64,000 nt of DNA from Candidatus Nomurabacteria bacterium (GTDB taxonomy: Bacteria; Patescibacteriota; Patescibacteriia; HK-STAS-PATE-3), in the NCBI GenBank assembly GCA_023898465.1, contig CP060223.1, positions 480,001 to 544,000 of the forward strand, written 5' to 3'. The notes under the pieces are model-generated. The model was given only the letters and a program-made list of their open reading frames with translations. It made no database searches and had not been told where the DNA came from. Numbering within the stretch: the stretch's first letter is position 1; each line of letters opens with the position of its first letter. Positions 14,033-51,943 of the stretch are shown one piece after another. Position numbers and translations under genes: made by a program.

Positions 14033-14569
14033 CTAATGAAGATTGGTTTGCAACTGAGCCTTTTGTAGGAGCTTCATTGCCTCGCTAGTAATTACCTGCA
14101 CCTTTTCCTCCCCTTTATCAACTATTTTTTGTAGCACTTCAAAGGGGTGTAGCTTGGTAAAGTTTCCTTGCACCACTTTCTTTGTTTGCTTCTGAATTGC
14201 TCGCGGCATAACTTTTACGACATCATTCATCATATGCTGAGGGGAAAAGATATATGCTGCAGTAACCTTACCACTGTGCATAATCGTCTGCAGACTGCTC
14301 TCTAACTGACGGAGAAACTTCACTCGCAAGGAAGCCTCCACATCTTCTCGCACCGCGCCAGAAGCAAGAGTTTTTCCACCTCGGCGTTTGGCAAAATGGC
14401 CCTCCTTATCTGAGTATTCCGGCGCCTCGATTCTATATGAGAGCACGTTTTCTATTGTGCCATTCATTGCCTCATAGAGCTCGAGGGATTTTGTCCCAGT
14501 CACAATAAACAAGGCGCGCTCATTAGTAAACTGAGGCAGTGTTTGCGTAATATGTAATCTTCGTCGCAT
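14033..14569 (-). CDS. Hypothetical protein, possibly eRF1-like (Host_attach/baeRF-like) fold. Start placed at MRRRLH, which has GGAGGA 5 nt upstream.
   Basis: Pattern ...ALFIVTG...YSDKEGHFAKRRGG...VREDVEASLRVKFLRQL...AAYIFSPQHMM...KDLT-like tail. This recalls the host-attachment/bacterial eRF1-like family from memory; not verifiable here. Confidence 0.35.
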   Translation of the reverse strand: MRRRLHITQTLPQFTNERALFIVTGTKSLELYEAMNGTIENVLSYRIEAPEYSDKEGHFAKRRGGKTLASGAVREDVEASLRVKFLRQLESSLQTIMHSGKVTAAYIFSPQHMMNDVVKVMPRAIQKQTKKVVQGNFTKLHPFEVLQKIVDKGEEKVQVITSEAMKLLQKAQLQTNLH

Positions 14570-32829: not shown

Positions 32830-33876
32830 TTAAATAACTTCCATCACGCCTGTATACATACCCATAGAACATGAATATGTATATCGGCCCGGTTGCGTTG
32901 GAGTAAATTGAAAACTTTGTCGGTCAGTGGGACGCAAAAAAGTGTCAATACCAAATTGTCGAAAAGTAAAAGCAACCGCACAAGAATATACGTCATTACT
33001 CTGCAATATCAACTCCACTGGCTTATTCTTTTCAACCGCAAAATATCGGGGCGAGTACCCTTGACCCAACACGTTAATGGTTACTCGCTGCACACCGTTA
33101 GTAAGTACCACTTCATCACTAACAGCCTTTGGTGTGCTTGTGTTCTGAAATTTTGCAATAATTTTTTCATACGTAATTGGTGCATCATACACATTAAGGA
33201 TCCCGTTGAAGCTGATAAGCGACAAGACAATCAAAATAGCAGCGGCAGTTTTTTGAAACCATCCATGCATCGTATCTGAGAGCTTCGCGGTCATGACGCC
33301 AAGTAAGGTAAAAATTGGTGAAGTACCAAGCACAAAGAAAAACATAATAAGGGCTCCAGCTATAGGACTGCCACTAGTAACTGCCACCACTTCCATTGCC
33401 TGAGTAACGCCGCAAGGGATAAAGACGGTCAAGACCCCTAATACTGCGGGGGCAAATAAAGTATCGCTCTTACTTGATTTCTTCACAAAGCGCTGCAGCC
33501 AACGCGGTGGCTGAAATGCTAAGAAGCGAAAGATTGGATGCACGTTTAATAAGTTCATTGCTGTAGCAAACATAAACAACGCTGCAGCAAGTTGAAAAGC
33601 GATACGCACATTTAATCCTATCGCTAACACTGAACCAAGCCAGCCAAGCAAAAAACCAAAGGCGGTGTGTACAATTAATTTCGCTAGTAAAAAAATACCT
33701 ACTGGCCAAATATCTGTTCCGCGGATTCGTGCATCGCTAGATTTTAGTGATGTTTTTCCGTTTTCAGATCGTTCCTTCTGATTAGCTATCACGCCTGCCA
33801 ACAACCCCCCTTGGACAGCTAGGCAGGTTAAGCCACCGGTAGTTAAGCCTGCTAAGAAAAAAACCCAATAATTCAT
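32830..33876 (-). CDS. Polytopic membrane protein (TauE/DsbD-like core) fused to a C-terminal cupredoxin-like domain; putative copper handling
   Basis: Eight or so TM helices, then a soluble beta domain ...[17 protein letters not shown] with cupredoxin-like Cys/Met spacing; sits between copA and copZ. Confidence 0.5.
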
Positions 33877-36104
33877 ATGTGTGATCGAAACGTTTTTAAT
33901 CGTAAGGCATTAAGCACAACTGAAACACTTGAAAAGGCCATTGCAGCGCCTGCCCAAATTGGATTGATAGTAATTCCCCAAATCGGCGCTAATGCTCCCA
34001 TGGCAACGGGTATGAGAAGAACATTATAACCAAAAGCCCAAGCAAGATTTTGCCAAATATTCTTCATAGTTGCTCGAGAAAGCGCAAGAGTCACTGGAAT
34101 TAACCGTAAGTCTGGACGAAGTAACACAACTCCAGCGGTCGCAATAGCAACATCAGTTCCCTGCCCCATTGCAATACTTAGATCCGCCGCTGCCAAGGCA
34201 GGCGCGTCGTTAATTCCATCCCCAATCATTGCGACGCCTTTTTTCTGCTGCTGCAGCTCTTTTATTCGCTGCTCTTTTTCTTGTGGAAGCACCTGTCCGA
34301 TAACTTGCGAAAGTTTAAGCTCACGCTGCACGTGCTGCGCTGCTTCTCTAGTATCACCAGTGAGCATTATGGTCTGTATGCCCTGATGATTTAAGGCGGC
34401 AATTACGCTGGCGGATTCCTCACGTATCGTATCAGCAATACTAAAGGAGACGAGGGCTTCATGATTGTCGGCCACATATACACGAGACATATTCACTGGC
34501 ATGAATTGAGCCTGGTCTGCATCGATTTGGATATTCTCTTGAGCCAACAGTGAGGCACTACCAATATTCATTTGACCGATAGTATCCTTAGCCCGAACTC
34601 CTTTTCCGGGCACATCAATTATTTCAGGCGCTGTTTCTGCGCTAGGTATTCCTTTGTCATTGATATACTGCGCAATAGCTTTTGCTAAAGGATGATTTGA
34701 GCGTTCTTCAATTGTCCGGACACGGCCAAGTAACTCTTGCTGCTCCTGGACGGAAAAAGTACGCATCATTTGTATATCTTGTACACGGGGCTTGCCTTCC
34801 GTTAAGGTGCCAGTTTTATCAAACACAATGGTCTGCACACGTCTCCCCAATTCAAGCGCTTCAGCATTTTTTATAAGTATCCCAAGCTCTGAACCCTTAC
34901 CAATGCCGACCATAATTGAAGTGGGAGTGGCTAAGCCGAGCGCGCAGGGACAAGCAATAATAAGCACACTCACCATGCTTACAAGTGCGTGTGCCCAAAC
35001 TGGATCTGGTCCAAAAAATAACCAAAGTCCAAAAGTGAGCAATGAAAGAGCGATAACAATTGGCACGAAATATGCTGAGATCTTGTCAGCTAAATTCTGT
35101 ACCGGGGGTCGAGATCCTTGCGCTTCTTCAACTAAGCGTACGATTTGTGCCAGCATAGTTTCATCACCCACTCGTCTTGCTTCCATCTCAAAAGCACCGC
35201 TAGTATTCATAGTTGCGCCAATTACCTGGTCTCCTGCCTTTTTCTCTACTGGCAAGCCTTCCCCAGTCACCATGCTTTCGTCTACCGCAGAGGATCCAGA
35301 CACAATATTCCCATCAACAGGAACTTTTTCACCTGGCTTCACTAAAATACGGTCTCCTACACGCACGTCAGTAAGGGGAAGATCCTGCCAAGTTTTTTTT
35401 TGAAATACATGCGCTATTTTTGCCTCTAGCTTCAACAAACGCTTCATTGCTGTAGCTGCCTGACCTTTTGCTCGCAACTCGAGAAATTTACCCAGTAACA
35501 CTAATGTAATTACCGTAGCTGAAGTTTCAAAGTACGCTAGCTGACTAATACCTAATGCCGCTAATTGATTTTCGTAAACTATTGAGAATGCTGAGGAGGC
35601 ATAGGCTACGCTAGTTCCTAAGGCGATAAGCGTATCCATATTGGCCGTGCGATTTTTCAGCGCAGACCAAGCGCTCAGGTAATAGTTTTTTCCAGCCCAA
35701 AACTGTACCGGGGTGGCAAGTATCCACATCAACCATGACTGACGCAGCCAATCAGGCGCTCCTGGCACCATCGCGCCAATAAGCAATAGTACAGTGAGTG
35801 GGAAAGAAACAAACAATCTCTGTCTCAACTGACGCAACTCTTCGACTCGTTCCTTTTCCGTAAGATCGCCGTGATCATGTACGCCTATGTGCGCTTTATA
35901 ACCCAACTTTGCAACGGTTTGCCCTATTTCATACTCTGGAGTTGCATGAGGGTCGAAGCTAACTGCTGCTTGATGATTTCCATAATTTACCGTTGCCTCT
36001 TTTACACCTGGAAGTTTCTTTAGACGACGTTGGATATTTGCCGCACAGCTTGCGCAATGCATGCCAGACACATGAAAATTGATCTGTTGGACATTATTTG
36101 GCAT
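33873..36104 (-). CDS. copA: Copper-translocating P1B-type ATPase (start at the internal Met MPNNVQQ)
   Basis: N-terminal [18 protein letters not shown] motif [20 protein letters not shown] phosphorylation site, [10 protein letters not shown] hinge. Confidence 0.9.
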
Positions 36105-36615
36105 ATTTTCCTGGATTTTTTTGAAAAGCCTTTTTACATCCACTCGCGCAAAAATAATATTTCTTCCCCTGATATTGCATGGCCGCGCCGGCCGTACTCG
36201 GAGAGACACGCATGTGACATACAGGGTCATGCACGATTGGCATAAGATCCTTCATTGTCCTACTGAATTCATCAGGTTTTTTATCGCCCTGTTGAACAAC
36301 AATAATGTCGCGAATAAGTTGACTCGCCTTAGCAAAATTCGGATGAGCTAAATGGTATCGAAGACGCTTTCCCAGCCGATGATAACTTACCGCTCCAGCA
36401 TCACGAAGTATTTTAAGATGCTGACTGAGATTTGCTTGTGGCAAACCAAGCATGTCTTGCATTTCCTCAACCGTTGCTGGGCCTTCTTTTAGTAAATGTA
36501 AAACCTCCAAACGGCGCGGATGTGCAAGCGCTTTTAAAAGCTTGGCGTGGAGTTTAAAAACTTGTTCATACATATTCGCTATTTCGAATATATATACTTC
36601 AGAAAAAACTGTCAA
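36094..36615 (-). CDS. ArsR/SmtB-family metalloregulator fused to a C-terminal YHS/TRASH metal-binding domain
   Basis: [48 protein letters not shown]; C-terminus VCHMRV...[12 protein letters not shown]. Confidence 0.75.
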
Positions 36616-37969: not shown

Positions 37970-38446
37970 TTACTGCCCTTGCTCGAAATCCTTCAGGATA
38001 CGCAAGTATTTTGCTTGAGTATCACTACCAATTTGTGGATGCGTAAAAACCGGCATTACACCGGTTATTGCTATGATATTTCTTACTTCATCAAAATAGA
38101 ATCCATCCAACGTTGCAATAAAGAGCCAAGAAGGATTCCAAGACTTAGCCATCCGTTTAGCATCTATAAGCACATATTCAGGACTTAGTTGTTTTTGATA
38201 TTTTACCTCTATCAATCTGACTTCGCTTGTTGCATGATCAATGACAGCGAAATCTGGCGCGGTACGTAAAATATTAACTGTTGGATTATCTTGTGAATAA
38301 CCCTGCTGGATAAGCTCAGGGATAATTTTTTCATACCCAAATTCGAGTACTGTAAATTGGCGTGATTCGCGAAACATTTGTGCAAATATCGTTTCAGCAA
38401 TTTTACCTTTAATGAGATTGTGAGTGAATTCTGTTGAGGTAGACAT
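37970..38446 (-). CDS. Small hypothetical protein with a PD-(D/E)xK nuclease-like motif
   Basis: APDFAVID ...(17 aa)... LIEVKYQ spacing matches the PD...(D/E)xK core; 158 aa. Confidence 0.3.
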   Translation of the reverse strand: MSTSTEFTHNLIKGKIAETIFAQMFRESRQFTVLEFGYEKIIPELIQQGYSQDNPTVNILRTAPDFAVIDHATSEVRLIEVKYQKQLSPEYVLIDAKRMAKSWNPSWLFIATLDGFYFDEVRNIIAITGVMPVFTHPQIGSDTQAKYLRILKDFEQGQ

Positions 38447-40034: not shown

Positions 40035-41186
40035 CTAATTATCTATTTCAAAATCCCAGAGTGCTTGTACCTGCGACGCGCTTAGGCCGGTGCGTGTCGC
40101 AATCTCTTGAGCCAAACTTGAGGTGCTGGTATTTGCAGAGGTCCACTCATAGCGCTGTGTATCACCACGGCGGGCTTTAATTTCTGTGCCATCTTCACGT
40201 ACCCGGACTTCTATTTCCCATTGGGCTTCTTCTTCATCGCCGTGATCCTCTGAATCGTTTGAATTACTATTACTGTTATGTGAATTGGTATCATCATTCA
40301 CATTTCCTTCATGAGAGTTGGTTGCATCTACATGCGTATTCTTATTATCATTTCCATGATCATCATTGGTGTCAGAATGGTCATCACTGCTATTGGCATT
40401 TTGCAGATCTACACCATCATACTCAATTTTGATAGCTGCCCGAACTTGGGCTTCGCTTAAGCCTAAACGGTCGGTAACTGCTTTAATAATTTCTTCACGA
40501 TCAGTCGTAGTCAGGGTAAACTCACTGTGCTGATTTGCTACTTCAGCCTGAACAAAGGCTTGTGCACCAGCTACGTGCACTTCAATTTCAATTCGCTGAA
40601 GACTATGACTGTTTTGTGCGTCTTCAATCTCACGCAGTTTTACTTCAACGTTACTTAGCGTCGCTGCAGCATGCTCATTTTCTTTGGCTTCTAATTCATC
40701 GCGCACTTCAGCTACGGTTTGTTGCGCATTTTGCAGAGCGGAATTTACATGATCAGCAGCATCTCGAGCTAGTTGCTCCTTTTGCTCTTGCTCTAACTCA
40801 GCTAGCTCTTTTGCTCGCTCAGCTGCAATCTCAGCCTGGATGCGGAGTCGCGCCTCAGCTGAGGTGGCTAAATTTAAACGGACTTGCTCGACGGCTTGAT
40901 CAATACCAAAGAGCCAATCTCCTGGCTTGGCATTATTCGCTGCGAGGACAGTGCCGGTGCCGCTGCCTAATAACACGATAGCGATAAGGATGCTTGCAAT
41001 CATATTTTTGTGATTAAGGAAAAAACCTGATCGCTGCTTATATCGATCAGCTTCCGGGACTGTTACGCTCGATGCAGCCATACGCAAACGAGCCTCAATA
41101 CGTTCACGGGCAGCCGGAGATAAAGACTGAGAATGAGACATCTTTAACAGCTTGATAATTTCTTTTGATGAAAAATGTTTCGACAT
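40035..41186 (-). CDS. Putative anti-sigma factor (single TM, coiled-coil periplasmic part, low-complexity His/Asn/Asp-rich tail)
   Basis: Immediately downstream of, and co-oriented with, the ECF sigma gene; N-terminal cytoplasmic segment plus one TM helix; 383 aa. Confidence 0.5.
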   Translation of the reverse strand: MSKHFSSKEIIKLLKMSHSQSLSPAARERIEARLRMAASSVTVPEADRYKQRSGFFLNHKNMIASILIAIVLLGSGTGTVLAANNAKPGDWLFGIDQAVEQVRLNLATSAEARLRIQAEIAAERAKELAELEQEQKEQLARDAADHVNSALQNAQQTVAEVRDELEAKENEHAAATLSNVEVKLREIEDAQNSHSLQRIEIEVHVAGAQAFVQAEVANQHSEFTLTTTDREEIIKAVTDRLGLSEAQVRAAIKIEYDGVDLQNANSSDDHSDTNDDHGNDNKNTHVDATNSHEGNVNDDTNSHNSNSNSNDSEDHGDEEEAQWEIEVRVREDGTEIKARRGDTQRYEWTSANTSTSSLAQEIATRTGLSASQVQALWDFEIDN

Positions 41187-41190
41187 ATAT

Positions 41191-41736
41191 TTACGAATAA
41201 GAGAGTTGTTCCATTTCCTTGCGTAAGGCTTGCAAAGCCCTATGTTTCAATACGCGCACATTGAGAGCACTGATCTGCATTACTTTTGCCACTTCACTTA
41301 TACTTAGATCCTCTCGATAAAGCATATGGAGCAGAGTTGCGTAGCGTTCAGGAAGGCGGGTTAAGGCTGATTCCATTTCCCGCTCCATTATTACATCTGG
41401 CATCTCATCCGGATCACTTGATAAAGTATGACTCACGCTCTCAATATCAACCTGGGTGCGTTGGCCACGATAATGATCAATCAAGCGGAAACGGGCAATT
41501 TGAAAAAGCCAGGTAGAGAATTTTGCATGTTTCTGCTCCTTATATCGGGGCAATGAGCGAATCATTTCAAGAAAAACAGTTTGGGTTAAATCCTCAGCTG
41601 TTTCCTGACTACTGACCCGCATAAGCAAGAAACGGAACACCCGGTCTCCGAAAAGGTGGAAAAGTTCGGCCACCCCTTCTTGATCCCCTTGTTGCGCTCT
41701 GGCGACGATTTCCTGTACTTGGCTTTCGTGTTGCAT
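41191..41736 (-). CDS. ECF-type RNA polymerase sigma-70 family factor
   Basis: Region 2 DLTQTVFLEMIRSLPRYKEQKHAKFSTWLFQIARFRLIDHYR; region 4 DLSISEVAKVMQISALNVRVLKHRALQALR. Confidence 0.85.
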   Translation of the reverse strand: MQHESQVQEIVARAQQGDQEGVAELFHLFGDRVFRFLLMRVSSQETAEDLTQTVFLEMIRSLPRYKEQKHAKFSTWLFQIARFRLIDHYRGQRTQVDIESVSHTLSSDPDEMPDVIMEREMESALTRLPERYATLLHMLYREDLSISEVAKVMQISALNVRVLKHRALQALRKEMEQLSYS

Positions 41737-42192: not shown

Positions 42193-42226
42193 TAAAAAGA
42201 AATCCCCAGGCCGATTGGTCTGGGGA
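42192..42226 (-). terminator. Intrinsic terminator for the minus-strand gene at 42233 (CCCCAG...CTGGGG followed by a T-run on the minus strand)
   Basis: Seen in sequence; back-to-back with the + strand terminator. Confidence 0.6.
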
Positions 42227-42232
42227 TGAGAA

Positions 42233-42679
42233 CTAGAACTGTTGTGCTGAACGCATCCGATGAAGCGTGCTACACACCAGTCCAATACCAGAGCGACGCT
42301 CTACACAGAACTGATACACCCGTTGCGCCGCCATGAGCTTTTCATAGAGCGCCTGACCATGCTTAGTGGCTAGTTCGTTTCGCATCTCCCGGTCTAGACC
42401 TTGGTAATACGAACCAAGCAGCAGATAGCGCACTAGAAGCCACCCCAGTAACCCGGAGCTGAGCAGCATCGCTGTTAAAGCACCGGGCAGAGTCAGATAC
42501 CCGAGCAAATCCTCCAGTCTTGCCCAGTAGTACACTGCAACAAGCTCAAATAGCAGAAACGCTAGCGTGGCTATAGTTGACCCTATCCGGATAAACAGGC
42601 GCCACCTTTTCACTCTCTCGCACAACTCTAGAATCTCTTCTTCTTGAACACTGAGTTGCGCGTAGAGGAAATTCGACAT
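42233..42679 (-). CDS. Hypothetical membrane protein (GC-rich; start probably MSNFLYAQ)
   Basis: Two or three TM helices; GC content like the adjacent ncRNA region rather than the flanking genes. Confidence 0.4.
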   Translation of the reverse strand: MSNFLYAQLSVQEEEILELCERVKRWRLFIRIGSTIATLAFLLFELVAVYYWARLEDLLGYLTLPGALTAMLLSSGLLGWLLVRYLLLGSYYQGLDREMRNELATKHGQALYEKLMAAQRVYQFCVERRSGIGLVCSTLHRMRSAQQF

Positions 42680-42745: not shown

Positions 42746-43528
42746 TTAAGGCCGGAGAGTACCGGAAAACATTTGCCAGGCTAGAGCTGATTTCGCCACC
42801 AGGGACAAAATCATATAGGCCTTTTCACCGTAGAGATAGTCCTGCCATTTCCCTATCTTCTTATACTGCAGGACCATGTTAATCGCGAAGATGTTAAAGG
42901 TGACAAAGATGGTGGCCACAATGAAATAAACAAAGGTAGGAATCTCCACTCCGGTCGACTGTACCGCGCCAATGAAGAAAGCAACAATGACCAGCCAGGG
43001 AATTAAGCCAGCCAAAACTCCTATCCAGTACGAAAGCCAATTCGTATGCTTGGTCGTCTGATTATGTACTTCCATCATCAAGCCCATGAGATTCATAATC
43101 GCATTCAAGGCAAACAGCGAAATGAGTAGCCAAAGATCGTACACACCACAAAGCATGGCAATAACTACAATCATAACTGACGAGGATAAGGCATACTCAG
43201 CCCAACGCAGCTTGTTGATGCCCTTTTTCAAATTCTCCTCATACCATTCCCGCAAAGGTCCGGCTAGAAGGAAATGCGCAAAAGCAGAAAGGAAGAGAAA
43301 GACCGCTACGGTGGGGCCTAAGCGTAAGTCAAACAAATGCTCAGGAAGTGGAGCTACACCAAAAACTGGATTATTTGGATCGATTTTCAGGTATGAAGTA
43401 ACAACTGGTAAAGATGAATTATTGCTTATCAAAACCATAATGACGCCTTGCACGAAGTGAAGGGCGGCCATTGACCAATTCCAGACTTGTAGTTTTTTTA
43501 ACTGCTCTTTTTGACTACGCATTTTCAT
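42746..43528 (-). CDS. Heliorhodopsin (7TM retinal protein with inverted topology)
   Basis: Strong similarity to heliorhodopsin 48C12 as recalled: LQVWNWSMAALHFVQG..., RWAEYALSSSVMIVVIA (counterion Glu), IPWLVIV, and C-terminal YLYGEKAYMILSLVAKSALAWQMFSG with the Schiff-base Lys. Both conserved His (LHFVQ, FAHFLL) are present; 260 aa. Confidence 0.9.
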   Translation of the reverse strand: MKMRSQKEQLKKLQVWNWSMAALHFVQGVIMVLISNNSSLPVVTSYLKIDPNNPVFGVAPLPEHLFDLRLGPTVAVFLFLSAFAHFLLAGPLREWYEENLKKGINKLRWAEYALSSSVMIVVIAMLCGVYDLWLLISLFALNAIMNLMGLMMEVHNQTTKHTNWLSYWIGVLAGLIPWLVIVAFFIGAVQSTGVEIPTFVYFIVATIFVTFNIFAINMVLQYKKIGKWQDYLYGEKAYMILSLVAKSALAWQMFSGTLRP

Positions 43529-43546
43529 ACCCCCCCCTTTTTTTCT

Positions 43547-43885
43547 TTACTTAAACCGTTTGCCTAGCCACGCGCCAATCCAAACGGCAAAAAGAATAAT
43601 ACCAAAAAGAATAAGTTGCCACAACCATTGTTCGCTTTCACGCCATAGCATTAGTAGCACGAATAGTGCAGCTGGTACTAGCCAAATACCCGTCCACGCT
43701 TTCCAAAGTGATGGAAACGCAAAAGTAAAGCCAGCGCTAAAAAGCAAGTACACTGCAAAAATTATTGCTCCAGCAACTATGTAATCATTTATCCCGGCGC
43801 TATCAGAAAAAAGCACATTCAGGACGAGAAAAAATCCAAAGAGGCAGCTAAGTAGACAGGCAAGGATAATCAAAAACGTACGCAT
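43547..43885 (-). CDS. Small 4-TM membrane protein, 18 nt upstream of and co-directional with the heliorhodopsin gene (likely co-transcribed)
   Basis: 112 aa, four hydrophobic helices; 18-nt spacing to the heliorhodopsin start. Confidence 0.5.
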   Translation of the reverse strand: MRTFLIILACLLSCLFGFFLVLNVLFSDSAGINDYIVAGAIIFAVYLLFSAGFTFAFPSLWKAWTGIWLVPAALFVLLMLWRESEQWLWQLILFGIILFAVWIGAWLGKRFK

Positions 43886-43925: not shown

Positions 43926-45614
43926 TTACTTAGGCTCTGCTACTGGATCTGTAAGCGACGCTCCTGCTGCTGCCATCTCTTCGTGTTCAGCGTCTCTAGG
44001 TAAGAAGAAGGATGCAATGAGGGTGAGTAAGGTAAAAGCAGCTGCGTAATTCATCACATCTTTGTTTGAATCAACGATTGCCTCGTACTGTAGACGGGAT
44101 AACTGCGGCAGCAGTTCAGCTGGGATGTTAGAGGTATCACCCGGTTCAGCGTTACCGAAAGTACGAGCCTGCTCCTCAATCGCTTCAATCAACTGAGGCT
44201 TCATTGCCTCAGGGATATTTACCAAGTCCTGGACGCCTGTTTCAACATGAGAGAGTAAGGAGCTTAAGAGAATCGTCCCAATAATAGCCGTACCAAGTGC
44301 CTGGCCCACAGTACGGAAGGTGGTATTTAAACCTGACGCTTGGCCAGAAAACTGCAGTGGAATAGTGGCTAAAGTAAGATTGGTAATCTGGGACATGATT
44401 AATCCAAAACCAAAGCCATACAAGGCAAGACCGGGAATCAAATCCCATTGACTCATATCAACTGAGAACTCGCTCTTGAGCACAAAAGCACTGATGAAAG
44501 AGATGAGAATGCCGAGCTGAATAATGTAGCGAGCGTGGAAGCGACCAGTGAAACGTGAGAAAAGCCCAGCGGCGATAAACAAGGCGATCGACATCGGCAT
44601 CAATGCTAGGCCCGTATCAAAGGCGCTTAAACCCAAAATAGCCTGTAGTAAAACTGGAATGGTAAAGAAGATGCCAGATTGAGCTAATACGAGAATGGTC
44701 AATGTCACAATGCCAGTGGAAAAAGCTCGATTCTGCAATATCACTGGATTCATAAGGGGCACTAAACCATCTGCACGTTGTGAACGATGTAAGCGTCGCT
44801 GCCAAAAACCAAAAAAGATGAGTATGAGCACGCCAAGGGCTACTGCTATTGGGGTAATGGAAAGGTCAAAAGGATGTATAGCAATATCGCCCATAGAATA
44901 AATCTCTTTTGCCTTCCACCAACCGTACTGACTTGCTTCCAAGAGGCCAAACACCACCGAACCAAGACCAAACGCTGACAGGATGGCGCCTAAATAATCA
45001 AGCTTCTCGCGTGAAGCATCATGCGTGCGTGGATCACGAATATAGCGAGCCAGAGCGAGAATAACTATGACAATAATCACCTCAGTAGCAAAAGCCCAGC
45101 GCCAGCTAAAATGCGTAGTCATATAACCGCCGAATAGTGGTCCAAGTGCTGCAGTCGCGCCAGCGGTGCCGCCCCAGATGCCGAAGGCAATGCGCAAATC
45201 CCTGCCGCGGTAATTCGCCAAAATAAGCGAAACAGTAGCTGGCATCATCAATGCCGCTCCAATGCCCTCAATAATTGACCAGCCTAATATCAACACATTT
45301 ACGTTCGGACTGAGTGCGGCAGTGATAGTGCCGGTCGCATACACCACTACGCCGATAAGGAAAAGCTTTTTGCGGCCATACATATCACCTATTCTGCCAC
45401 CAGTGAGCATAAAGGCTGCCATAACAAGAGAATAGATGGTGATGGCCCACTGCACATTTCGCAAGCTTGTACCGAGATCATGCACAACGTTTCGAATAGA
45501 AACATTAAGCATGGTGGTATCAAAGATGATAATCACCAAAGCAAGGCTAAGTACAACTACTAGGCCCCACTTCTGGAACCAAGCGCGAATAGGATGTGAA
45601 GTATTTGTTTCCAT
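43926..45614 (-). CDS. MFS transporter, 14-TM DHA2-like drug:H+ antiporter family
   Basis: Approximately 14 hydrophobic helices; MFS motif-A-like GRIGDMYGRKK; start probably the internal Met. Confidence 0.75.
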   Translation of the reverse strand: METNTSHPIRAWFQKWGLVVVLSLALVIIIFDTTMLNVSIRNVVHDLGTSLRNVQWAITIYSLVMAAFMLTGGRIGDMYGRKKLFLIGVVVYATGTITAALSPNVNVLILGWSIIEGIGAALMMPATVSLILANYRGRDLRIAFGIWGGTAGATAALGPLFGGYMTTHFSWRWAFATEVIIVIVILALARYIRDPRTHDASREKLDYLGAILSAFGLGSVVFGLLEASQYGWWKAKEIYSMGDIAIHPFDLSITPIAVALGVLILIFFGFWQRRLHRSQRADGLVPLMNPVILQNRAFSTGIVTLTILVLAQSGIFFTIPVLLQAILGLSAFDTGLALMPMSIALFIAAGLFSRFTGRFHARYIIQLGILISFISAFVLKSEFSVDMSQWDLIPGLALYGFGFGLIMSQITNLTLATIPLQFSGQASGLNTTFRTVGQALGTAIIGTILLSSLLSHVETGVQDLVNIPEAMKPQLIEAIEEQARTFGNAEPGDTSNIPAELLPQLSRLQYEAIVDSNKDVMNYAAAFTLLTLIASFFLPRDAEHEEMAAAGASLTDPVAEPK

Positions 45615-45715
45615 AATTGCAAAAAAATGAATGGCCGTACTCACCCGGAGCACTCCCGGATAATAACGTAACGTCAAGTATACTCGCCGCTCAATAACTT
45701 GTCGAGACTACGGCA

Positions 45716-46222
45716 TCATATCTTCCGAGCGTCATAGGCCCAGTGTAGCAGCGCCTGACGTTGCCGACGGCGACAAGCCATATCACGAGGCGCGCAATAC
45801 TTCTTGATTTGACCAACGTGACGACGAATAGCTTTCCAGCGCTTTATTTGACGCTCATCCTCCCTGGGAATACGACGGCCTGAATAATAGCGACAGTACC
45901 ATTGAAACCAACCTCGTGGATCCTCTGGATAAATCCAGCCTTTGCGCTGCCACTCTGCTAAAGATTGACTAGCGTCGACAGCAAAGAAATTGAGGTGGGG
46001 ATTATGGGTGGAGGATAATCGTGCGCCGCGAAACCATGAAGCGGGAAATTCTTTTTGACAATCATTGAGGTACTTACCCCCAAAAACACCTAGTCGCAGC
46101 ATCTGCGCAGGACTTAATTCAGGCGTAAACTCTGGAGCAAAGTTTCGGCCAGGCGCTTCTGTCCGGTAGTATGTGTAGGCCTGCTGAAAGCTATCGTTTA
46201 CTTTAACTTTTTTCTTCATAAT
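45716..46222 (-). CDS. Hypothetical basic, Cys/Trp-rich protein
   Basis: ORF; no recognised motif. Confidence 0.35.
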   Translation of the reverse strand: MMKKKVKVNDSFQQAYTYYRTEAPGRNFAPEFTPELSPAQMLRLGVFGGKYLNDCQKEFPASWFRGARLSSTHNPHLNFFAVDASQSLAEWQRKGWIYPEDPRGWFQWYCRYYSGRRIPREDERQIKRWKAIRRHVGQIKKYCAPRDMACRRRQRQALLHWAYDARKI

Positions 46223-46541
46223 CCCCTGTTGAAGCTTGCCGCACCCAGCGCTGCTCAATATAGAGCACTCGCCACCACCATCGCCCTAAGAAATACCCAC
46301 CAATCGCTCCAAGTAGTAACAAGCCAATTTGAATGTATGGTGGAAGCGCACATCCCCAGGTCCAATGTATAACCTGTCCATTTTTCTCAGCCCAGCTTAA
46401 ATACCACTGCTCAATTCCTAAATGTAACAGCAAACTTAACAGCACGCCGAACACAGTAGCGCTAATGAGATAAAGTGCATGTTTGAACGGGGTTGCTTTA
46501 AGTGGTCCGCGATGAAACATATTTAGAAAAGATTTAACCAA
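46203..46541 (-). CDS. Small membrane protein (112 aa)
   Basis: Two or three TM helices; overlaps neighbours by a few nt on both sides (operon-like). Confidence 0.4.
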   Translation of the reverse strand: MVKSFLNMFHRGPLKATPFKHALYLISATVFGVLLSLLLHLGIEQWYLSWAEKNGQVIHWTWGCALPPYIQIGLLLLGAIGGYFLGRWWWRVLYIEQRWVRQASTGDYEEKS

Positions 46542-49500
46542 CCAAAGAGGTCTTGCACTGATCCTAGGATTACCTGCACAACTGTTTGTTCTTGCTGTGG
46601 AGTAAGAATAGTCAGAGGCTCAGACACCGAGGTCTGTCCACTGGAATCCGTGCTCTCCACCTTGAACTGATACACCGAACCTGGCTCAAAACTTGTCAAA
46701 ACGACAACGTGCCGTTTCGTATAGTTTGTATCAAGTGGCGTGGCTTCGGTAATTGCTTCATCAGCACTGGCAACACCCTGTCGATAGTACACTCGACTAG
46801 TGGCTGGCTCATTTGTTAGCCAGCTGATGATGGTTTGGACTTTAGTATCACGGCCCGGGGAAAGGGCTGAGTCAGTTTGAATCTGCGAGATAAGCGGAGG
46901 CGCATTCTCATCGCCGGTCACAAAGGAGTCAAGCGTCTTGGAAACCGTATTGCCATCTGCATCAACACTTACCAACTCAATTGCGTAAGTCACTCCAGAC
47001 TCAAAACTATCTACAGTCACCTGATGAATAATGGTTTGCGTATCATCTCGAACACTGCTTAACTCATCGACCGCTTTGATGTTATTGCGATAAGGTATCA
47101 CCCGTACAGTGGCATCTGCATCACGAGTGGTGGTCCAGCGGAATACCGCTTCCTCGCTTGATATTTTTTCGACGGCATAATTTTGAATATCAAAAACCTG
47201 CGGATCAGTAGTGAAACTAAAGTCTGCACTTTGCGTTGTCTGGCTAATCTTTGTTCGACTACGCACTTGGTAATGATAGGTTGTATCAGGCTGTAAGTTG
47301 TAAACCGTAACTGAATGGGTCGTGCTATAGGTTTCCGCATCACCCACCACCTGAGTATACTGTTGTGCCAGAGCAAAGTCAGCATCTGAAGCGTAAGCTA
47401 CCAGGGCATTAGAGTCTTTATCAGTTCTCCATTGGATAGTGACTGAAGTTGGACCAACATCCACGCGAGGCTCTCCACTAATAAGCGGAGTAGGAATTAT
47501 TTTTGATAACTCCTCGATGAGTTGATACTGCTCTTCTAAACTTAGCTCTAAAATATCAATGCTAACATTGCCATAGAGATCATTCAGTAGATCAAGATTT
47601 TCTTCAAGGATATTCTTAATCTCATCAGGATTGTTTCTATCGATTGGTGCAGTGCCAGACGTAGTGAATGTTTTATCGCCGGTAATCGACGTGTTGCCGC
47701 TTGCATCAACGGAAATAACTCGATAATGATAAGTAGACCCACTGTTTAATTGTTGCAGAGTAAGGCTATGACTGGTGGCATAAGTCCAGTCACCATAAAT
47801 AGTTCCGTAAACTGTGGTAAGGCCAAATTGAATAAAGCTATTCGCTTCCTCACTTGTAGTCCAACGCACAGTGGCAGCGCTATCGCTAATGTTTACCACC
47901 TCGATGCCGGTTATGCTTGGATTTGTCTCATCCTTACTACCATCAATAGCATCTTGTTCACGTTGCTCTACATCTGATTCCTCAGACAGCATTTCTAAAG
48001 TGCTAAAGGATTTTTCTGTACTCGTTGTGCTATTACCTGAAGCATCAACTGACGAAACAGTGTAATAGTATGTCGTCTTAGGGCTGAGATTACTTAAGGT
48101 AACTAAATGGGTTAGGTTGAGACTTTCGTCTAAGCTCGTTGTAACCGTATAATTTCCCGAGCTTGTCCCATAACGCAATTGAGATGTTGCTCGCTCGTTA
48201 CTTAGCCAGGTAACTACTGCTCGAGTGTCAATGACCGGATCGGCCTGTATATTTGATAAGACTGGTGGCACTGTATCACTAGTCGTAACAAAGGAGTAAT
48301 ATTCACCACCGTTGTTATCAAAAGCTACGCCTGAGGTTACATAGTAGTAATACAGGGTACCGTTTGTCAGTCCTGATAACTTCACTAAATGATTCATCGT
48401 TGGTGGAGTATCCAGACCAACCTCAATGGCATCACTCATATCTGAATTCACTGAATAGAAGACGTGTGAATCAGACTCTACATCAGTTAACCAGCTTATA
48501 CTCGCTTCAGTATTACTCACCTCTTGCGTACTTACATTAGAAATTGCTGGACCACTTAAGGTTGTTACCGTATATCCATCACCTCCGTCAGAGTCAGTTG
48601 CCGAGTTCCCACCCGGATCCTCTGAACGAACTCTGAAATAGTACGTTGTCGAGGGATCGAGTCCGGTAAGTATGACTCGGTGAACACCAACACCTGCTTC
48701 ATTATCCATCAGAGTTGCAACACCGATAGTCGTACCAAAATCAGCTGGGGTATCTGAATATCCAATAGTAGAATCAGAGAGCTCATCTGTCTCCCAGGTA
48801 ATAGTGACCGTCTGAGTACCTATCTGACTGGTTGCTACATTTGAAATAGTTGGAGGCGTACTATCAGTACCTCCTTGTCCGTTGGCAGACTCTGAGACAA
48901 CCGCCGAGTAGTAAGAAAAATTTCCATCGCTATCTTCGCTTGATATCTTATACCAATAGCTTGTATCTGCTGTAACACTTTGATCGAGATAATAGTTAAT
49001 TGCTCTATCGCTTATGTGGCTAATCGTACTATAGCTCGTGCCGTCTGTTGAACGATACACCGTGTATTCGCTAAAGCCTGGGTCGGGCAGTGCTACTGCC
49101 TTCCAAGAAATAAAGAGTTGATAGGCATCAGCTTCTACATTACTAATATCACGAATAATCACTGTTGTTGGTGTTTCTGGTGTTACCGCTGATGCACTAC
49201 TGCTGGTATTTTTGTACGCATCACGGAAACGGACATAGACTGTATCTGGATCAGTAACCAAGGAAATAGTTGAGGAAGAGGCATAGCTTACCCACGTCGC
49301 GCCAACAAAGTCACTCCGCAAAGATACTTGCATTTCAAGGCTGCTATCATCAGAGCCGGAGAGATCGAGAGAAGCGGGGTCAGTACGTGCGTCCACCACA
49401 ATTGCCGGACTACCGAGGACTGGGTCTTTTACATCAAGAGTAAAGGCGCTTGTTTCATCGCTGGCTGTATTATTTGCTAATTCCCCATCATCAATAGTGA

Positions 49501-51943
49501 CTCTAATTAAGGTAGTGGTGCTATAGGTCCCATCGATTTGGGCTTTTGCGTTCCAGCTTGCACTATATTCAGTGTAATTAGTTTCATCGATGTCTTTAGG
49601 ATCGGTTGCCCCGGATGATAGCCCTGTGGTCACGTTAAACCAATCAAGGCCATTATTTAACGAATATTCAAAACTCGGGGTCACCTGTCCTGAGCCAGAG
49701 CTGCCATCTGGGTCACGAACTGAGTAAGTGATAAGCACGCTACCATCACTGCTTTGCTGGGTAGCTGTTGGTGCGCCCTCAAACTCAGGCGGTGCATTTA
49801 CCACATACACCATAGTTGCATCATACAGTGTTGGCGCCGCATAACCGTTTGAAGACTCTAGCCATACCTTATACTGCATCCACTGATCATTCGTACTATC
49901 GGTATGAGTGCTATTCACCGTCTCTCCGCCACTTGGATCAGTATAATAATCCCCTGTGCCGCTAGGACCAAGCCAGCTTGACCAAGTACCAGGAGATCCT
50001 GAGCTATCTGGAGCGGTCCGAATCTGAAATTTGATTTCAGTACCACTCGGTAGATTTTCTGTCCAGCGCATACCCCCCAGCGCATTTAATGCATCGGTGC
50101 TATCAAAAGCAGATGAGGTCAGTGTTTGTGATGATGGGTATTGTTGATAACCGATGCTAATGTCTTCAAAGTGCGGCGAAGCACTAGTATCACTCGTCGA
50201 CATACTCACTCGATATTGAATGTATTGCTCACCATCCGTGACGCAAGCGTCAGAACTAATATCATTCCCGCTCGTTAAATTACCGCATCCGGACCAATCA
50301 GGTGCTCCACTCATGCCTGAATCATTTGAGGTACGAGCCTGAACAGTTAAAGTGGTGCTTCCTGGAACGGTAGCATTCCAACTTAAGGTATCAAAAACAG
50401 TGTTTCCGTTTGTATTAAGTGCCGCTGAGGTGAAAGTGCCCGGTGTAAGATAGGTTGAAGGAATATTAATGGCTAATCCGCTTGCACCATCAGCCATATA
50501 GCTAGTGGTGCCTGATTGCAACACATGTTTTCCGAGCGCGGTAAGTGCGGTGCTGCTCACTTCTGATGGAGAGGTTGGATTGCTCACATCAAGCACTTTT
50601 AAGCTTGCGTCATCAATAATGTACAAGTCTGTGCCTACCGCCTCTACTGAACGCACATCAGTCAAACCTGTACTATAAGCCCCTATGCGAACCGGGACAG
50701 ATGGATTACTAATATCAATAATAGTGACACCAACCGAGGAGTCTGCGGTATATGCGTAGCTACCTACTATAGCTACATCATATCCTTCATCAAAGGCTTC
50801 AAAATCATACGAATATCCTCGTACACCGCTAATAGAACCCGGGGTTCCAATATTGTATATGTTTAAACTCGCAGCCTCTCCGTAATCATCGTACCCAACC
50901 CCATATAAGTAATCACCATCAGCAACCAGGCGATACGGTCTTGCTTGATATGAAACGTTTGACGCACTGAGACTTGGGTTTACCGGATCCGCCAAAGACA
51001 ACACATAAATGCGCATCACACGACAAAAACCTGAACAACCTCCTACTGCAAAACCGGCATACAAATATGATCCACGAAGGTATACGCTGTACACCTCTCC
51101 CGTGCTTGTATATTGCCCTACTAAGCTCGGCGCATTTTTGTTGCTAATATCCACTACACGAACATCACCGGTATAGTCAGCAAGATACGCATAGTTGCCT
51201 GAAACGGTAACGTCTCGCGCGTCGTTTGTGTCGACACTACCAAGGGGCTGAGGTGATAAAGGATTCGAAATATCAAAAATTTTCAAACCATCAACGCCAT
51301 CGGCAATATAGGCATAATTACCGTCGACAAAAACTCCTTTTGCGTCAGTGGTGTCGGAATAGGCAGTGCCACCACTTGATTGGGCCAACTCAACATAGGC
51401 CCCACTTCCCGATCCCGTGACTTGAGTGCTACTCGTGGTACCTGTACCAAAATCAGCATCACTCGTTTGCACGAGAGACTGCGACGTGGTAGTTAAGCTT
51501 AGTTCCGTGCCAATGTTAAGGTTTGCATCAGCTGCTGAGTACTCATTCCAACCTGTCTGATCACCTGGATGCTGAGCAGTATTTGCAGTTTGACCACCGC
51601 TCCAGTCTGTCTGCACCCAATAATAAGTGGCCGCTCGAGAGGAACCAATAGTGAGAGCCCAAAATGTCACGCTAATGAGTAAAACAGACGAAATAATTGC
51701 TCCTGCGTAACGTCGAGAACTTTTAAAAGGCTTTATTACCTTTTGCGCTACCTTTTTATTACGTTTTAAGGAAATGGCAAGTACCCATCCAAAATATAAT
51801 GGGATAAACGCGGTATAAGGACGCTGCTTCTTGCGTTTCGCGCGAAGAAGCGTTGTTTTTTTCTGTAAGCTGGCTGATAAAGAAAATATTCCGAAACCAG
51901 CTCTTTTTGGGGGGCTTTTTTTCGCCGACCTTTTTTTGGTCAC
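46523..51943 (-). CDS. Giant cell-surface protein (about 1800 aa): signal/anchor, LVIVD-repeat beta-propeller region, then at least 6 fibronectin type III-like domains
   Basis: LVIVD-type repeats GNYAYIADGVDGLKIFDISNPLSPQPLG / GNYAYLADYTGDVRVVDISNKNAPSLVG; FN3 units TPPTISNVATSQIGTQTVTITWETDELSDSTIGYS...YYFRVRSEDPGGN repeated. The annotated Met start lies in a Lys/Arg-rich extension, so the real start may be a downstream GTG/TTG before the hydrophobic signal. Confidence 0.7.
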   Translation of the reverse strand: MTKKRSAKKSPPKRAGFGIFSLSASLQKKTTLLRAKRKKQRPYTAFIPLYFGWVLAISLKRNKKVAQKVIKPFKSSRRYAGAIISSVLLISVTFWALTIGSSRAATYYWVQTDWSGGQTANTAQHPGDQTGWNEYSAADANLNIGTELSLTTTSQSLVQTSDADFGTGTTSSTQVTGSGSGAYVELAQSSGGTAYSDTTDAKGVFVDGNYAYIADGVDGLKIFDISNPLSPQPLGSVDTNDARDVTVSGNYAYLADYTGDVRVVDISNKNAPSLVGQYTSTGEVYSVYLRGSYLYAGFAVGGCSGFCRVMRIYVLSLADPVNPSLSASNVSYQARPYRLVADGDYLYGVGYDDYGEAASLNIYNIGTPGSISGVRGYSYDFEAFDEGYDVAIVGSYAYTADSSVGVTIIDISNPSVPVRIGAYSTGLTDVRSVEAVGTDLYIIDDASLKVLDVSNPTSPSEVSSTALTALGKHVLQSGTTSYMADGASGLAINIPSTYLTPGTFTSAALNTNGNTVFDTLSWNATVPGSTTLTVQARTSNDSGMSGAPDWSGCGNLTSGNDISSDACVTDGEQYIQYRVSMSTSDTSASPHFEDISIGYQQYPSSQTLTSSAFDSTDALNALGGMRWTENLPSGTEIKFQIRTAPDSSGSPGTWSSWLGPSGTGDYYTDPSGGETVNSTHTDSTNDQWMQYKVWLESSNGYAAPTLYDATMVYVVNAPPEFEGAPTATQQSSDGSVLITYSVRDPDGSSGSGQVTPSFEYSLNNGLDWFNVTTGLSSGATDPKDIDETNYTEYSASWNAKAQIDGTYSTTTLIRVTIDDGELANNTASDETSAFTLDVKDPVLGSPAIVVDARTDPASLDLSGSDDSSLEMQVSLRSDFVGATWVSYASSSTISLVTDPDTVYVRFRDAYKNTSSSASAVTPETPTTVIIRDISNVEADAYQLFISWKAVALPDPGFSEYTVYRSTDGTSYSTISHISDRAINYYLDQSVTADTSYWYKISSEDSDGNFSYYSAVVSESANGQGGTDSTPPTISNVATSQIGTQTVTITWETDELSDSTIGYSDTPADFGTTIGVATLMDNEAGVGVHRVILTGLDPSTTYYFRVRSEDPGGNSATDSDGGDGYTVTTLSGPAISNVSTQEVSNTEASISWLTDVESDSHVFYSVNSDMSDAIEVGLDTPPTMNHLVKLSGLTNGTLYYYYVTSGVAFDNNGGEYYSFVTTSDTVPPVLSNIQADPVIDTRAVVTWLSNERATSQLRYGTSSGNYTVTTSLDESLNLTHLVTLSNLSPKTTYYYTVSSVDASGNSTTSTEKSFSTLEMLSEESDVEQREQDAIDGSKDETNPSITGIEVVNISDSAATVRWTTSEEANSFIQFGLTTVYGTIYGDWTYATSHSLTLQQLNSGSTYHYRVISVDASGNTSITGDKTFTTSGTAPIDRNNPDEIKNILEENLDLLNDLYGNVSIDILELSLEEQYQLIEELSKIIPTPLISGEPRVDVGPTSVTIQWRTDKDSNALVAYASDADFALAQQYTQVVGDAETYSTTHSVTVYNLQPDTTYHYQVRSRTKISQTTQSADFSFTTDPQVFDIQNYAVEKISSEEAVFRWTTTRDADATVRVIPYRNNIKAVDELSSVRDDTQTIIHQVTVDSFESGVTYAIELVSVDADGNTVSKTLDSFVTGDENAPPLISQIQTDSALSPGRDTKVQTIISWLTNEPATSRVYYRQGVASADEAITEATPLDTNYTKRHVVVLTSFEPGSVYQFKVESTDSSGQTSVSEPLTILTPQQEQTVVQVILGSVQDLFGWLNLF

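Follow-up and report, generated by a model that had tools for sequence, protein, structure and literature searches.

The gene at 42746..43528 on the minus strand of the window (the whole 64-kb stretch of DNA that was analysed) is confirmed by profile searches and alignments as a genuine, full-length heliorhodopsin (HeR). It is probably a canonical retinal-binding HeR, presumed to be a light sensor that uses scavenged retinal, and it would stand third in a four-gene unit with strain-specific neighbours. Because the genes next to HeR are strain-specific indels, guilt-by-association would mislead at this locus, and the value of the result is in this respect negative and methodological. The only new leads are two genes further upstream of HeR, p112b and p180. 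The features referred to below are listed in order of coordinate.

40035..41186, minus strand, DUF5667 protein (Pfam; 67% identity in L086)
41191..41736, minus strand, ECF sigma factor (Pfam; 76% identity in L086)
42194..42227, minus strand, intrinsic-terminator-like hairpin (AUCCCCAG...CUGGGGAU) then UUCUUUUU (fold and sequence)
42233..42679, minus strand, down148, 148 aa, 2 TM, USN54031.1 (hypothetical), GGGAGG before the start (ORF and hydropathy)
42746..43528, minus strand, heliorhodopsin (HeR), 260 aa (PF18761, NF038020, PDB alignments, exact match to USN54032.1)
43547..43885, minus strand, up112, 112 aa, 4 TM, USN54033.1 (hypothetical) (ORF and hydropathy)
43926..45614, minus strand, DHA2/EmrB-type MFS efflux transporter, 562 aa from ATG, USN54034.1 (PF07690, TIGR00711)
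45677..45705, minus strand, sigma-70-like promoter match TCGACA, 17 nt, TATACT, 10/12, consensus only (consensus scan)
45716..46219, minus strand, p180, 167 aa, soluble, basic, Trp-rich, USN54035.1 (recurs next to heliorhodopsin)
46203..46520, minus strand, p112b, 105 aa, 2 TM, USN54036.1, H6760_02595 (jackhmmer and tblastn, family alignment)

Identity and hallmark residues of the heliorhodopsin

The 260-aa product matches the Pfam profile PF18761 over positions 1-242 of 242 (E=2.1e-98, 329 bits vs a cutoff of 26.7) and the NCBIfam HeR equivalog NF038020 over positions 1-244 of 244 (340.9 bits vs a cutoff of 100). Heliorhodopsin is the sole Pfam family that matches the ORF at E<=0.01, and the type-1 rhodopsin profile PF01036 (Bac_rhodopsin) gives no match at that threshold. 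Type-1 microbial rhodopsins carry the TM7 motif DxxxK; with no Bac_rhodopsin match and with SLVAK as its TM7 motif, the protein is ruled out as a member of that class. The best solved relative is TaHeR (PDB 6is6, E=9e-79), at 53% identity over 246 aligned residues, and the alignment with solved heliorhodopsins runs end to end. The motifs from which the sequence-only reading had named the protein a heliorhodopsin are all present: residues 13-27 are LQVWNWSMAALHFVQ, residues 108-121 are RWAEYALSSSVMIV, and the C-terminal SLVAKSALAWQ contains K246. The diagnostic Lys, Glu and His residues align with those of both TaHeR and 48C12. Both conserved histidines (H24 and H85) correspond to H23 and H80 of 48C12, E111 in RWAEY corresponds to the TM3 counterion E107, and K246 corresponds to K241 and also to the equivalent Lys of TaHeR. 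K246, the predicted Schiff-base Lys, lies in a TM7 SxxxK motif (S242-L-V-A-K246), which is the criterion for the retinal lysine used in PMC9166423. PMC7807009 sets out what the Lys of TM7, the Glu of TM3 and H23/H80 do in heliorhodopsin.

Outside the Schiff-base Lys, 15 of the 18 Lys and Arg residues fall in the N-terminus (five in residues 1-12) and in the TM2-3 (five), TM4-5 (one) and TM6-7 (four) loops, the opposite side having three. Because of this concentration the N-terminus is predicted to be cytoplasmic, and the protein would have seven TM segments, its C-terminus outside, and hence the inverted topology of HeR. The A7G8 tract of the HeR ribosome-binding site was considered as a site of phase variation and rejected, as other assemblies have A8G7 or A7G8 with the total length unchanged.

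The protein is identical to GenBank USN54032.1, "heliorhodopsin HeR [Candidatus Nomurabacteria bacterium]", which is encoded on a 1,082,586-bp contig of a Candidatus Nomurabacteria MAG (Patescibacteria/Parcubacteria group). The guess that the host is a reduced, CPR-like bacterium was therefore correct, and because of the same identity both the CPR assignment and the heliorhodopsin label were already in place in the GenBank record. A survey of 86 CPR genomes found 115 rhodopsins, 98 of them inferred to be heliorhodopsins, with SLVAK as the commonest motif (PMC9166423). The finding as originally stated adds little, since HeR is labelled in GenBank and both CPR heliorhodopsins and retinal scavenging have been published.

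Retinal supply and expected activity

None of the families BCD/Blh, lycopene cyclase, phytoene synthase, phytoene desaturase and type-1 rhodopsin was found among 43 window ORFs, which comprise every ORF of at least about 200 aa and some smaller ones. No retinal biosynthesis cluster (crtE/B/I/Y plus blh) lies near the opsin within the 64-kb window, and the earlier statement that the window has no retinal pathway holds for the ORFs scanned. Seven window ORFs, of 185-418 aa, have no Pfam match whatsoever. As the host is a member of the Patescibacteria (CPR) with a genome of about 1.08 Mb, the retinal would most likely be taken up from other organisms. Such scavenging is plausible as judged from 64 kb of the 1.08-Mb genome, and in CPR it is not new (PMC9296517). 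TaHeR is reported to derive from an organism that lacks a retinal pathway and to bind external retinal fast via an opening in the protein; Saccharibacteria rhodopsins, from CPR genomes without blh, also take up external retinal fast (PMC9296517).

By homology, HeR would bind all-trans-retinal within its seven TM segments by a Schiff base to K246, for which E111 would be the counterion, H24 and H85 lying nearby. By analogy with characterised relatives, it would sense light with a slow photocycle instead of pumping ions, and its effect would come from changing the activity of other proteins. Some viral heliorhodopsins, as cited in PMC11109279, transport protons. For the window HeR we infer retinal binding, a photocycle and the absence of ion transport from homology.

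The four-gene unit

The sequence-only reading described HeR and the membrane protein upstream of it as a two-gene operon. The two ORFs are as claimed (260 and 112 aa, an 18-nt gap, four TM segments in the smaller product), but the unit is more aptly seen as comprising four genes, MFS, up112, HeR and down148, and as ending at a terminator near 42200. All four point the same way, separated by 40, 18 and 66 nt in that order; the up112-HeR gap becomes 24 nt if the second Met is the start of HeR, which is how Logan calls the gene. The hairpin at 42194..42227 has a predicted energy of -16.4 kcal/mol (z=-3.3, with 1 of 200 shuffles as good) and is followed by a U-run, and the small gaps between the four genes hold no significant structure of the kind expected for internal terminators. 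The promoter match at 45677..45705 lies ahead of the MFS gene, in a gap of 101 nt; across the region nine sigma-70-like matches were found vs 6.6 expected, which is no enrichment. Co-transcription of the four genes is suggested by how closely they are spaced, by a single consensus match to a promoter and by a single predicted terminator, and HeR would be the third gene transcribed.

The MFS ORF, which extends to a TTG at 45677, matches PF07690 (E=1.5e-46) and passes the cutoff of TIGR00711 (DHA2/EmrB; 237.1 vs 230.2 bits), so that the MFS transporter noted earlier in this minus-strand block is upheld. The DHA2 family is one that we take to be a 14-TM class (TCDB). The membrane protein downstream of HeR, down148, starts at 42679 and had been called GC-rich; it is mildly so (51.5% vs 45.6% for the window), and it has no family match in Pfam, NCBIfam, PHROG or PADLOC. 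Hydropathy gives four hydrophobic segments for up112, which likewise matches nothing in these four collections, and an exhaustive phmmer search of 1.84 billion representatives returned only itself and nine weak matches. It is close to an orphan; its family is sparse and is marked by the motif GFFLVFNxxFSD.

Neighbours compared over heliorhodopsin loci

Neighbourhoods were compared over 170 heliorhodopsin loci by tblastn and profile searches. In tblastn, up112, MFS and down148 adjoin heliorhodopsin only in L081 and L082, both of which are the same strain as the window (99.9% DNA identity). The nearest relative, L086, is syntenic on one contiguous contig and has an HeR 85% identical to that of the window. 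It carries p112b, p180, HeR, the sigma factor and DUF5667 but is without up112, MFS and down148; the backbone common to the two is mnmA, p112b, p180, HeR, ECF sigma and DUF5667. These comparisons indicate that up112, MFS and down148 are recent strain-specific additions or retentions. Being strain-specific and outside the common backbone, the immediate neighbours say little on general HeR function, contrary to the earlier suggestion that they would be informative. Being confined to one strain does not prevent a neighbour from being a genuine partner there.

The possible co-occurrence of up112 with heliorhodopsin in other genomes, raised at the outset, was seen only in the same strain among the 170 loci, and up112 was rejected as a conserved HeR partner. 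A profile made from its nine weak relatives has no match near heliorhodopsin in the other loci, and the one weak relative on a readable contig adjoins a methyltransferase gene. Also rejected was a general, non-homologous theme of a small membrane protein directly upstream of HeR, such proteins being present upstream in 7 of 142 loci and downstream in 12 of 142.

Recurrent neighbours further upstream

The most frequently recurring HeR neighbour in CPR loci is p112b. Searches by jackhmmer and tblastn place it on the same strand as HeR in nine other loci, mostly CPR. In the named loci it is upstream of HeR by 106 nt (L092), 267 nt (L157), 510 nt (L029), 594 nt (L086), 608 nt (L050), 1197 nt (L038) and 2700 nt (L002), compared with 2678 nt in the window, and in L083 it lies 2 kb downstream. 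Every copy found is at most 2.7 kb from HeR, with flanks examined to 10 kb. The family alignment has conserved features, namely H-x2-IE in TM1, a loop Cys and a WWRxVYIExRW tail. The genes that lie between p112b and HeR are p180 and GNAT-like genes, with MFS and up112 in the window.

The other lead, p180, belongs to a very large, widespread family whose members in different phyla are about 70% identical, and it has invariant Cys and His residues. It has no match in Pfam, NCBIfam, PHROGs, PADLOC or a PDB sequence search and no recognisable fold, and its neighbours in genomes without heliorhodopsin are inconsistent. As an extremely widespread, highly conserved 167-aa protein without a Pfam model, it is a side lead.

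Possible partners of the heliorhodopsin

The recurrence of p112b raises the possibility, which we hold tentatively and consider unlikely on the whole, that HeR works with p112b as a lineage-specific Patescibacteria membrane partner, the two forming a conserved bracket around variable cargo (p180, MFS, up112). Apart from the proximity and the conserved features of p112b, this is favoured by the identities to the window, 51-85% for HeR and 27-60% for p112b across the loci, from which the two appear to diverge together, while the genes flanking and between them vary from locus to locus; a literature search returned no published mention of p112b. However, only about 5 of the 12 loci in the closest HeR clade (>70% identity) have p112b, and it was not found in L001, L084, L087, L089, L093 and L094. 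The loci are also partly non-independent phylogenetically, a downstream gene being common to L029 and L157. A word-indexed search meant to trace the family beyond HeR loci returned only two proteins, and L174, the one relative found via p112b itself, is followed by an unrelated lipoprotein-like gene on a contig of only 1272 bp. Nor does p112b have a signalling domain. Sensory rhodopsins of the SRII-HtrII type are paired with a neighbouring 2-TM protein in which HAMP and methyl-accepting domains do the signalling; p112b, down148 and up112 have no Pfam or NCBIfam domain and are too short for HAMP/methyl-accepting domains, and none of them makes a sensory rhodopsin-transducer pair of this type with HeR. 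That p112b is a dedicated HeR partner in Patescibacteria, in a pair that persists over deep divergence with unrelated cargo inserted between, is a shade less likely again. In that case p112b would become the first candidate for a membrane subunit of a heliorhodopsin, either accessory or transducing, and light-linked control could be proposed for the genes inserted between the two. To our knowledge, the heliorhodopsin partners described so far are isolated cases (glutamine synthetase, photolyase, an ABC exporter), and therefore a recurrent CPR membrane partner would give a testable handle.

Regulation of the adjacent DHA2 efflux pump by HeR in response to light, possibly with up112 as an accessory, is improbable. 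It would parallel the binding of OcHeR to OmrDE, a multidrug ABC exporter that OcHeR upregulates under illumination (PMC11109279), and the window MFS is likewise of an efflux-type family; its gene is also co-directional with up112 and HeR at short gaps, after a promoter-like site and ahead of the single terminator that follows down148. However, an HeR-regulated transporter operon would be recognised by its recurrence, and the MFS gene is found only in L081 and L082 and is absent from the syntenic L086, as is up112; homologues of neither are near heliorhodopsin in other lineages among the 170 loci. MFS transporters are missing from the ten recurrent heliorhodopsin neighbour groups of PMC11109279, and a small TM protein directly upstream of HeR is not a general feature. 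Slightly more improbable still is a path by which HeR would feed a light or photo-oxidative-stress signal to the ECF sigma factor and DUF5667, the latter as a putative anti-sigma factor. The sigma-DUF5667 pair is syntenic with HeR in L086, and in L114 a heliorhodopsin of 54% identity is followed after 269 nt by a gene of the sigma-70 family. Seven loci have, near heliorhodopsin, a recurring protein whose N-terminus looks MsrA-like by eye. Heliorhodopsins are linked to signal transduction and oxidative-stress genes in PMC8612252, but sigma factors have zero occurrences there. Moreover, the pair lies downstream of the 42194..42227 terminator, which together with a 496-nt gap separates it from the HeR unit, and its synteny amounts to one close relative and one weak case. 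The preferred reading remains that of a canonical, probably light-sensing HeR among strain-specific neighbours.

Comparison with known systems

Among solved heliorhodopsins, the window HeR most resembles TaHeR (6IS6/7U55) of a Thermoplasmatales archaeon, with which it shares the His, Glu and Lys hallmarks and the C-terminal SLVAKSALAWQ. However, the host of TaHeR is archaeal whereas that of the window HeR is bacterial (CPR). The extracellular TM1-2 loop of the window protein is two residues longer than in TaHeR, and its TM5-6 region five residues longer. The founding member, 48C12 (6SU3/6UH3), from an actinobacterial fosmid, is more distant than TaHeR (E=3e-57), but the hallmark residues align and the window HeR matches the family profiles over their full length. 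The closest named homologues are Kerfeldbacteria heliorhodopsins (75-76% identity). The CPR heliorhodopsins of Chiriac et al. 2022 (PMC9166423) are likewise Patescibacteria HeR, with SLVAK as their commonest retinal-lysine motif; they are mostly from Saccharimonadia, whereas the window HeR is labelled Nomurabacteria (Parcubacteria group) and has a gene context not described there.

In gene arrangement there is a likeness to OcHeR-OmrDE (PMC11109279), where the HeR gene also shares a single co-directional unit with the gene of an efflux transporter of multidrug type. That transporter is an ABC exporter, and ABC transporters are one of the ten recurrent neighbour groups (PMC11109279), whereas the window transporter is an MFS protein (DHA2) whose pairing with HeR occurs in this strain only. 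The type-1 rhodopsins of Saccharibacteria (PMC9296517) are likewise CPR retinal proteins without blh (here, within the window), and the published account is that their retinal is scavenged from neighbours or hosts. Unlike the window HeR, which has a predicted inverted topology and is presumed sensory, they are outward proton pumps.

Identity and host of the heliorhodopsin

The sequence-only reading had called a 260-aa ORF (HeR) a heliorhodopsin, and both this ORF and its 112-aa partner lie exactly where it placed them. HeR covers the whole Pfam Heliorhodopsin profile (PF18761, E=2.1e-98), its only Pfam match at E<=0.01, and scores 340.9 bits against the NCBIfam HeR equivalog model (cutoff 100). 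Its top solved relative is TaHeR (6is6; E=9e-79; 53% identity over 246 aligned residues), and 48C12 (6su3; E=3e-57) is also among the best. The best hit is thus not a type-1 rhodopsin, and the conserved Lys, Glu and His positions are in register: H24, H85, E111 and K246 of HeR align with H23, H80, E107 and K241 of 48C12. What the TM7 Lys, the TM3 Glu counterion and both His residues do is summarised in PMC7807009. Lys and Arg number 15 in the N-terminus and the TM2-3, TM4-5 and TM6-7 loops versus 3 on the opposite side, a pattern that fits an inverted, N-terminus-in topology. As judged from its sequence, HeR has every feature of a retinal-binding heliorhodopsin.

All 260 residues are identical to GenBank USN54032.1, encoded on a 1,082,586-bp contig whose taxon falls in the Patescibacteria/Parcubacteria group; a reduced, CPR-like bacterium had thus been guessed correctly, and GenBank already annotates the gene. 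The genes around it occupy consecutive entries of the same record. The nearest named homologues are from Candidatus Kerfeldbacteria (75-76% identity). The remaining gene content of the window is in keeping with a small CPR genome: sugar-nucleotide enzymes, S8 and PDZ proteases, a TrwB-like ATPase, a Cu-ATPase and an LVIVD/FN3 surface protein of 1806 aa.

The locus and its probable transcription unit

Genes of the locus in order, with the GenBank entry and annotation where available and the distance to the next gene.
mnmA (-); 60 nt
ABC ATPase (-); 2 nt
FtsX permease (-); 45 nt
46523..51943 (-), 1806-aa predicted surface protein with LVIVD repeats, FN3 and purple-acid-phosphatase N-terminal domains; 2 nt
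46203..46520 (-), p112b, 105 aa, 2 TM; USN54036.1, H6760_02595, hypothetical; 17-nt overlap
45716..46219 (-), p180, 167 aa; USN54035.1, H6760_02590, hypothetical; 101 nt
43926..45614 (-), MFS transporter; USN54034.1, MFS transporter; 40 nt
43547..43885 (-), up112, 112 aa; USN54033.1, H6760_02580, hypothetical; 18 nt
42746..43528 (-), HeR; USN54032.1, heliorhodopsin HeR; 66 nt
42233..42679 (-), down148, 148 aa; USN54031.1, H6760_02570, hypothetical; 496 nt, terminator inside the gap
ECF sigma factor (-); 4 nt
DUF5667 (-); last

HeR and up112 are co-directional and 18 nt apart. The unit is probably larger than the two-gene operon proposed earlier, the simplest reading being four genes: MFS, up112, HeR and down148. 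The 101-nt gap before MFS carries a sigma-70-like site (10/12, a consensus match only), and 3' of down148 lies a hairpin (-16.4 kcal/mol, z=-3.3) followed by UUCUUUUU. The small internal gaps of the unit showed no significant structure. HeR and down148 both have strong, purine-rich ribosome-binding sites. MFS exceeds the NCBIfam DHA2/EmrB efflux cutoff; hydrophobic segments number four in up112 and two in down148. The latter is the downstream membrane protein described as GC-rich, which it mildly is (51.5% versus 45.6% for the window).

The ribosome-binding region of HeR is made up of an A7G8 homopolymer run (43529..43546 (-)). L081, assembled independently from the same strain, has A8G7 at unchanged total length, and the difference is therefore a junction SNP; slipped-strand length variation was rejected.

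Immediate neighbours are strain-specific

Neighbourhoods were compared across 170 heliorhodopsin loci (80 from genomes, 80 from metagenomes and 10 close relatives retrieved by exact look-up), with 1.9 Mb of flanking DNA. Among these, up112, MFS and down148 adjoin heliorhodopsin only in L081 and L082, Logan contigs 99.9% identical to the window and belonging to its own strain. The nearest different relative, L086 (heliorhodopsin 85% identical), has on a contiguous 3.4-kb contig an mnmA-like C-terminus (by eye only), p112b (58% identity), p180 (76%), heliorhodopsin, ECF sigma (76%) and DUF5667 (67%); up112, MFS and down148 are all absent from it. The three genes are therefore indels on a common backbone. 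Since p112b directly follows mnmA in L086, the 1806-aa gene, which ends 2 nt before p112b in the window, and the ABC/FtsX pair look like a further insertion.

Used as query in an exhaustive HMMER search against 1.84 billion representatives, up112 retrieved itself and nine weak matches (E 5e-6 to 8e-4). These share a real motif, GFFLVFNxxFSD, plus an R/K-E-S/P turn, which makes up112 part of a sparse family. With a profile built from this family, no member turned up near any other heliorhodopsin in the collected loci, and the one relative with readable context adjoins a methyltransferase. A small membrane protein directly upstream was also rejected as a general pattern (7/142 loci). MFS is not one of the ten recurrent heliorhodopsin neighbour groups (PMC11109279) and is unmentioned in PMC8612252. 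The proposal that the 112-aa partner and the MFS neighbourhood inform on function is not supported.

Recurring neighbours

Two families, p112b and p180, recur near heliorhodopsin out of eight window proteins tested as neighbours.

Position of p112b relative to heliorhodopsin, identity of that heliorhodopsin to HeR, and intervening genes.
L092: 106 nt upstream; 83%; no gene
L157: 267 nt upstream; 51-55%; 58-aa TM peptide
L029: 510 nt upstream; 52-55%; 153-aa or 178-aa ORF, GNAT-like by eye (also L050)
L086: 594 nt upstream; 85%; p180
L050: 608 nt upstream; 54%; as L029
L038: 1197 nt upstream; 54%; 294-aa protein
Window: 2678 nt upstream; query; p180, MFS, up112
L002: 2700 nt upstream; 75%; several genes
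L083: about 2 kb downstream; 80%

In all these loci p112b is on the heliorhodopsin strand, and upstream except in L083; no detected copy is farther than 2.7 kb away, with flanks reaching 10 kb, while the intervening genes and outer flanks vary. The family alignment conserves H-x2-IE, a loop Cys and WWRxVYIExRW. Against a functional link, about seven loci in the closest heliorhodopsin clade lack p112b. In L174, a 1.3-kb contig with the single relative whose detection did not depend on heliorhodopsin, the gene that comes next is unrelated. We consider such a link rather unlikely. A 158-aa ORF (37970..38446 (-)), 8 kb from p112b in the window, resembles by eye a 157-aa gene (97-570) that immediately precedes the p112b homologue in L174.

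The p180 gene lies 22 nt downstream of heliorhodopsin in L011 (labelled Saccharibacteria), is convergent with it at 23 nt in L061 (labelled WWE3), and adjoins it in L086, where 3 nt separate the called genes and p180 homology stops 94 nt before heliorhodopsin homology starts. In the window, L002 and L031 the distance is at most 10 kb. The family is very large, about 70% identical across phyla, with 60/167 invariant positions including three Cys and two His. Its members include MAGs labelled Pseudolabrys, Gemmatimonadaceae and Gammaproteobacteria, so the family is not confined to genomes with heliorhodopsin.

Two MAGs titled 'uncultured Gammaproteobacteria' (L001, L002) carry heliorhodopsins 75% identical to HeR, L002 with p112b and p180 homologues as well. 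According to published work, heliorhodopsins are confined to monoderms, so these labels are probably wrong.

About 6.5 kb downstream of HeR, a Cu-type P1B ATPase (HMA + E1-E2) precedes a DsbD_2-cupredoxin protein (32830..36230 (-)); the same pair directly follows a 74% identical heliorhodopsin in L088 (1659-4849), which may reflect regional synteny or a recurring association. Proteins with an MsrA-like N-terminus (GCFWC, by eye) occur within 4 kb of heliorhodopsin in L002, L003, L006, L019, L033, L063 and L070, and in L083 a PF01625 PMSR gene (14068-14568) is no more than 6 kb away. This agrees with the connection to oxidative stress published for heliorhodopsin.

Retinal supply

Of 43 window ORFs searched against Pfam (every ORF of at least about 200 aa plus some smaller), none encodes BCD/Blh, lycopene cyclase, phytoene synthase, phytoene desaturase or a type-1 rhodopsin; seven (185-418 aa) had no Pfam match. 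The remark that no retinal-synthesis genes are in view holds at this scope, the 64-kb window of a 1.08-Mb genome. Scavenging of retinal by CPR bacteria is already a published inference: Saccharibacteria with rhodopsins are without blh, the TaHeR source organism is described as being without a retinal pathway, and the apoproteins of both take up external retinal within seconds (PMC9296517).

Possible function and comparison with known heliorhodopsins

The identification is correct but ordinary: HeR is already annotated, and its family is known and has been described before in this lineage. A CPR survey found 115 rhodopsins in 86 genomes, 98/115 inferred to be heliorhodopsins, with SLVAK the commonest motif (PMC9166423). 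Only the p112b and p180 associations are leads that may be new. HeR would bind scavenged all-trans-retinal and, by analogy with reported heliorhodopsins, could act as a slow-cycling light sensor modulating other proteins; candidate targets are, in order of preference, p112b, the putatively co-transcribed MFS and up112, and the ECF sigma pair. Photo-oxidative stress, proposed for heliorhodopsins of monoderms and CPR (PMC8612252, PMC9166423), is a possible connection. Among known systems, heliorhodopsins are reported to modulate glutamine synthetase (PMC9529153) and an ABC exporter (PMC11109279).
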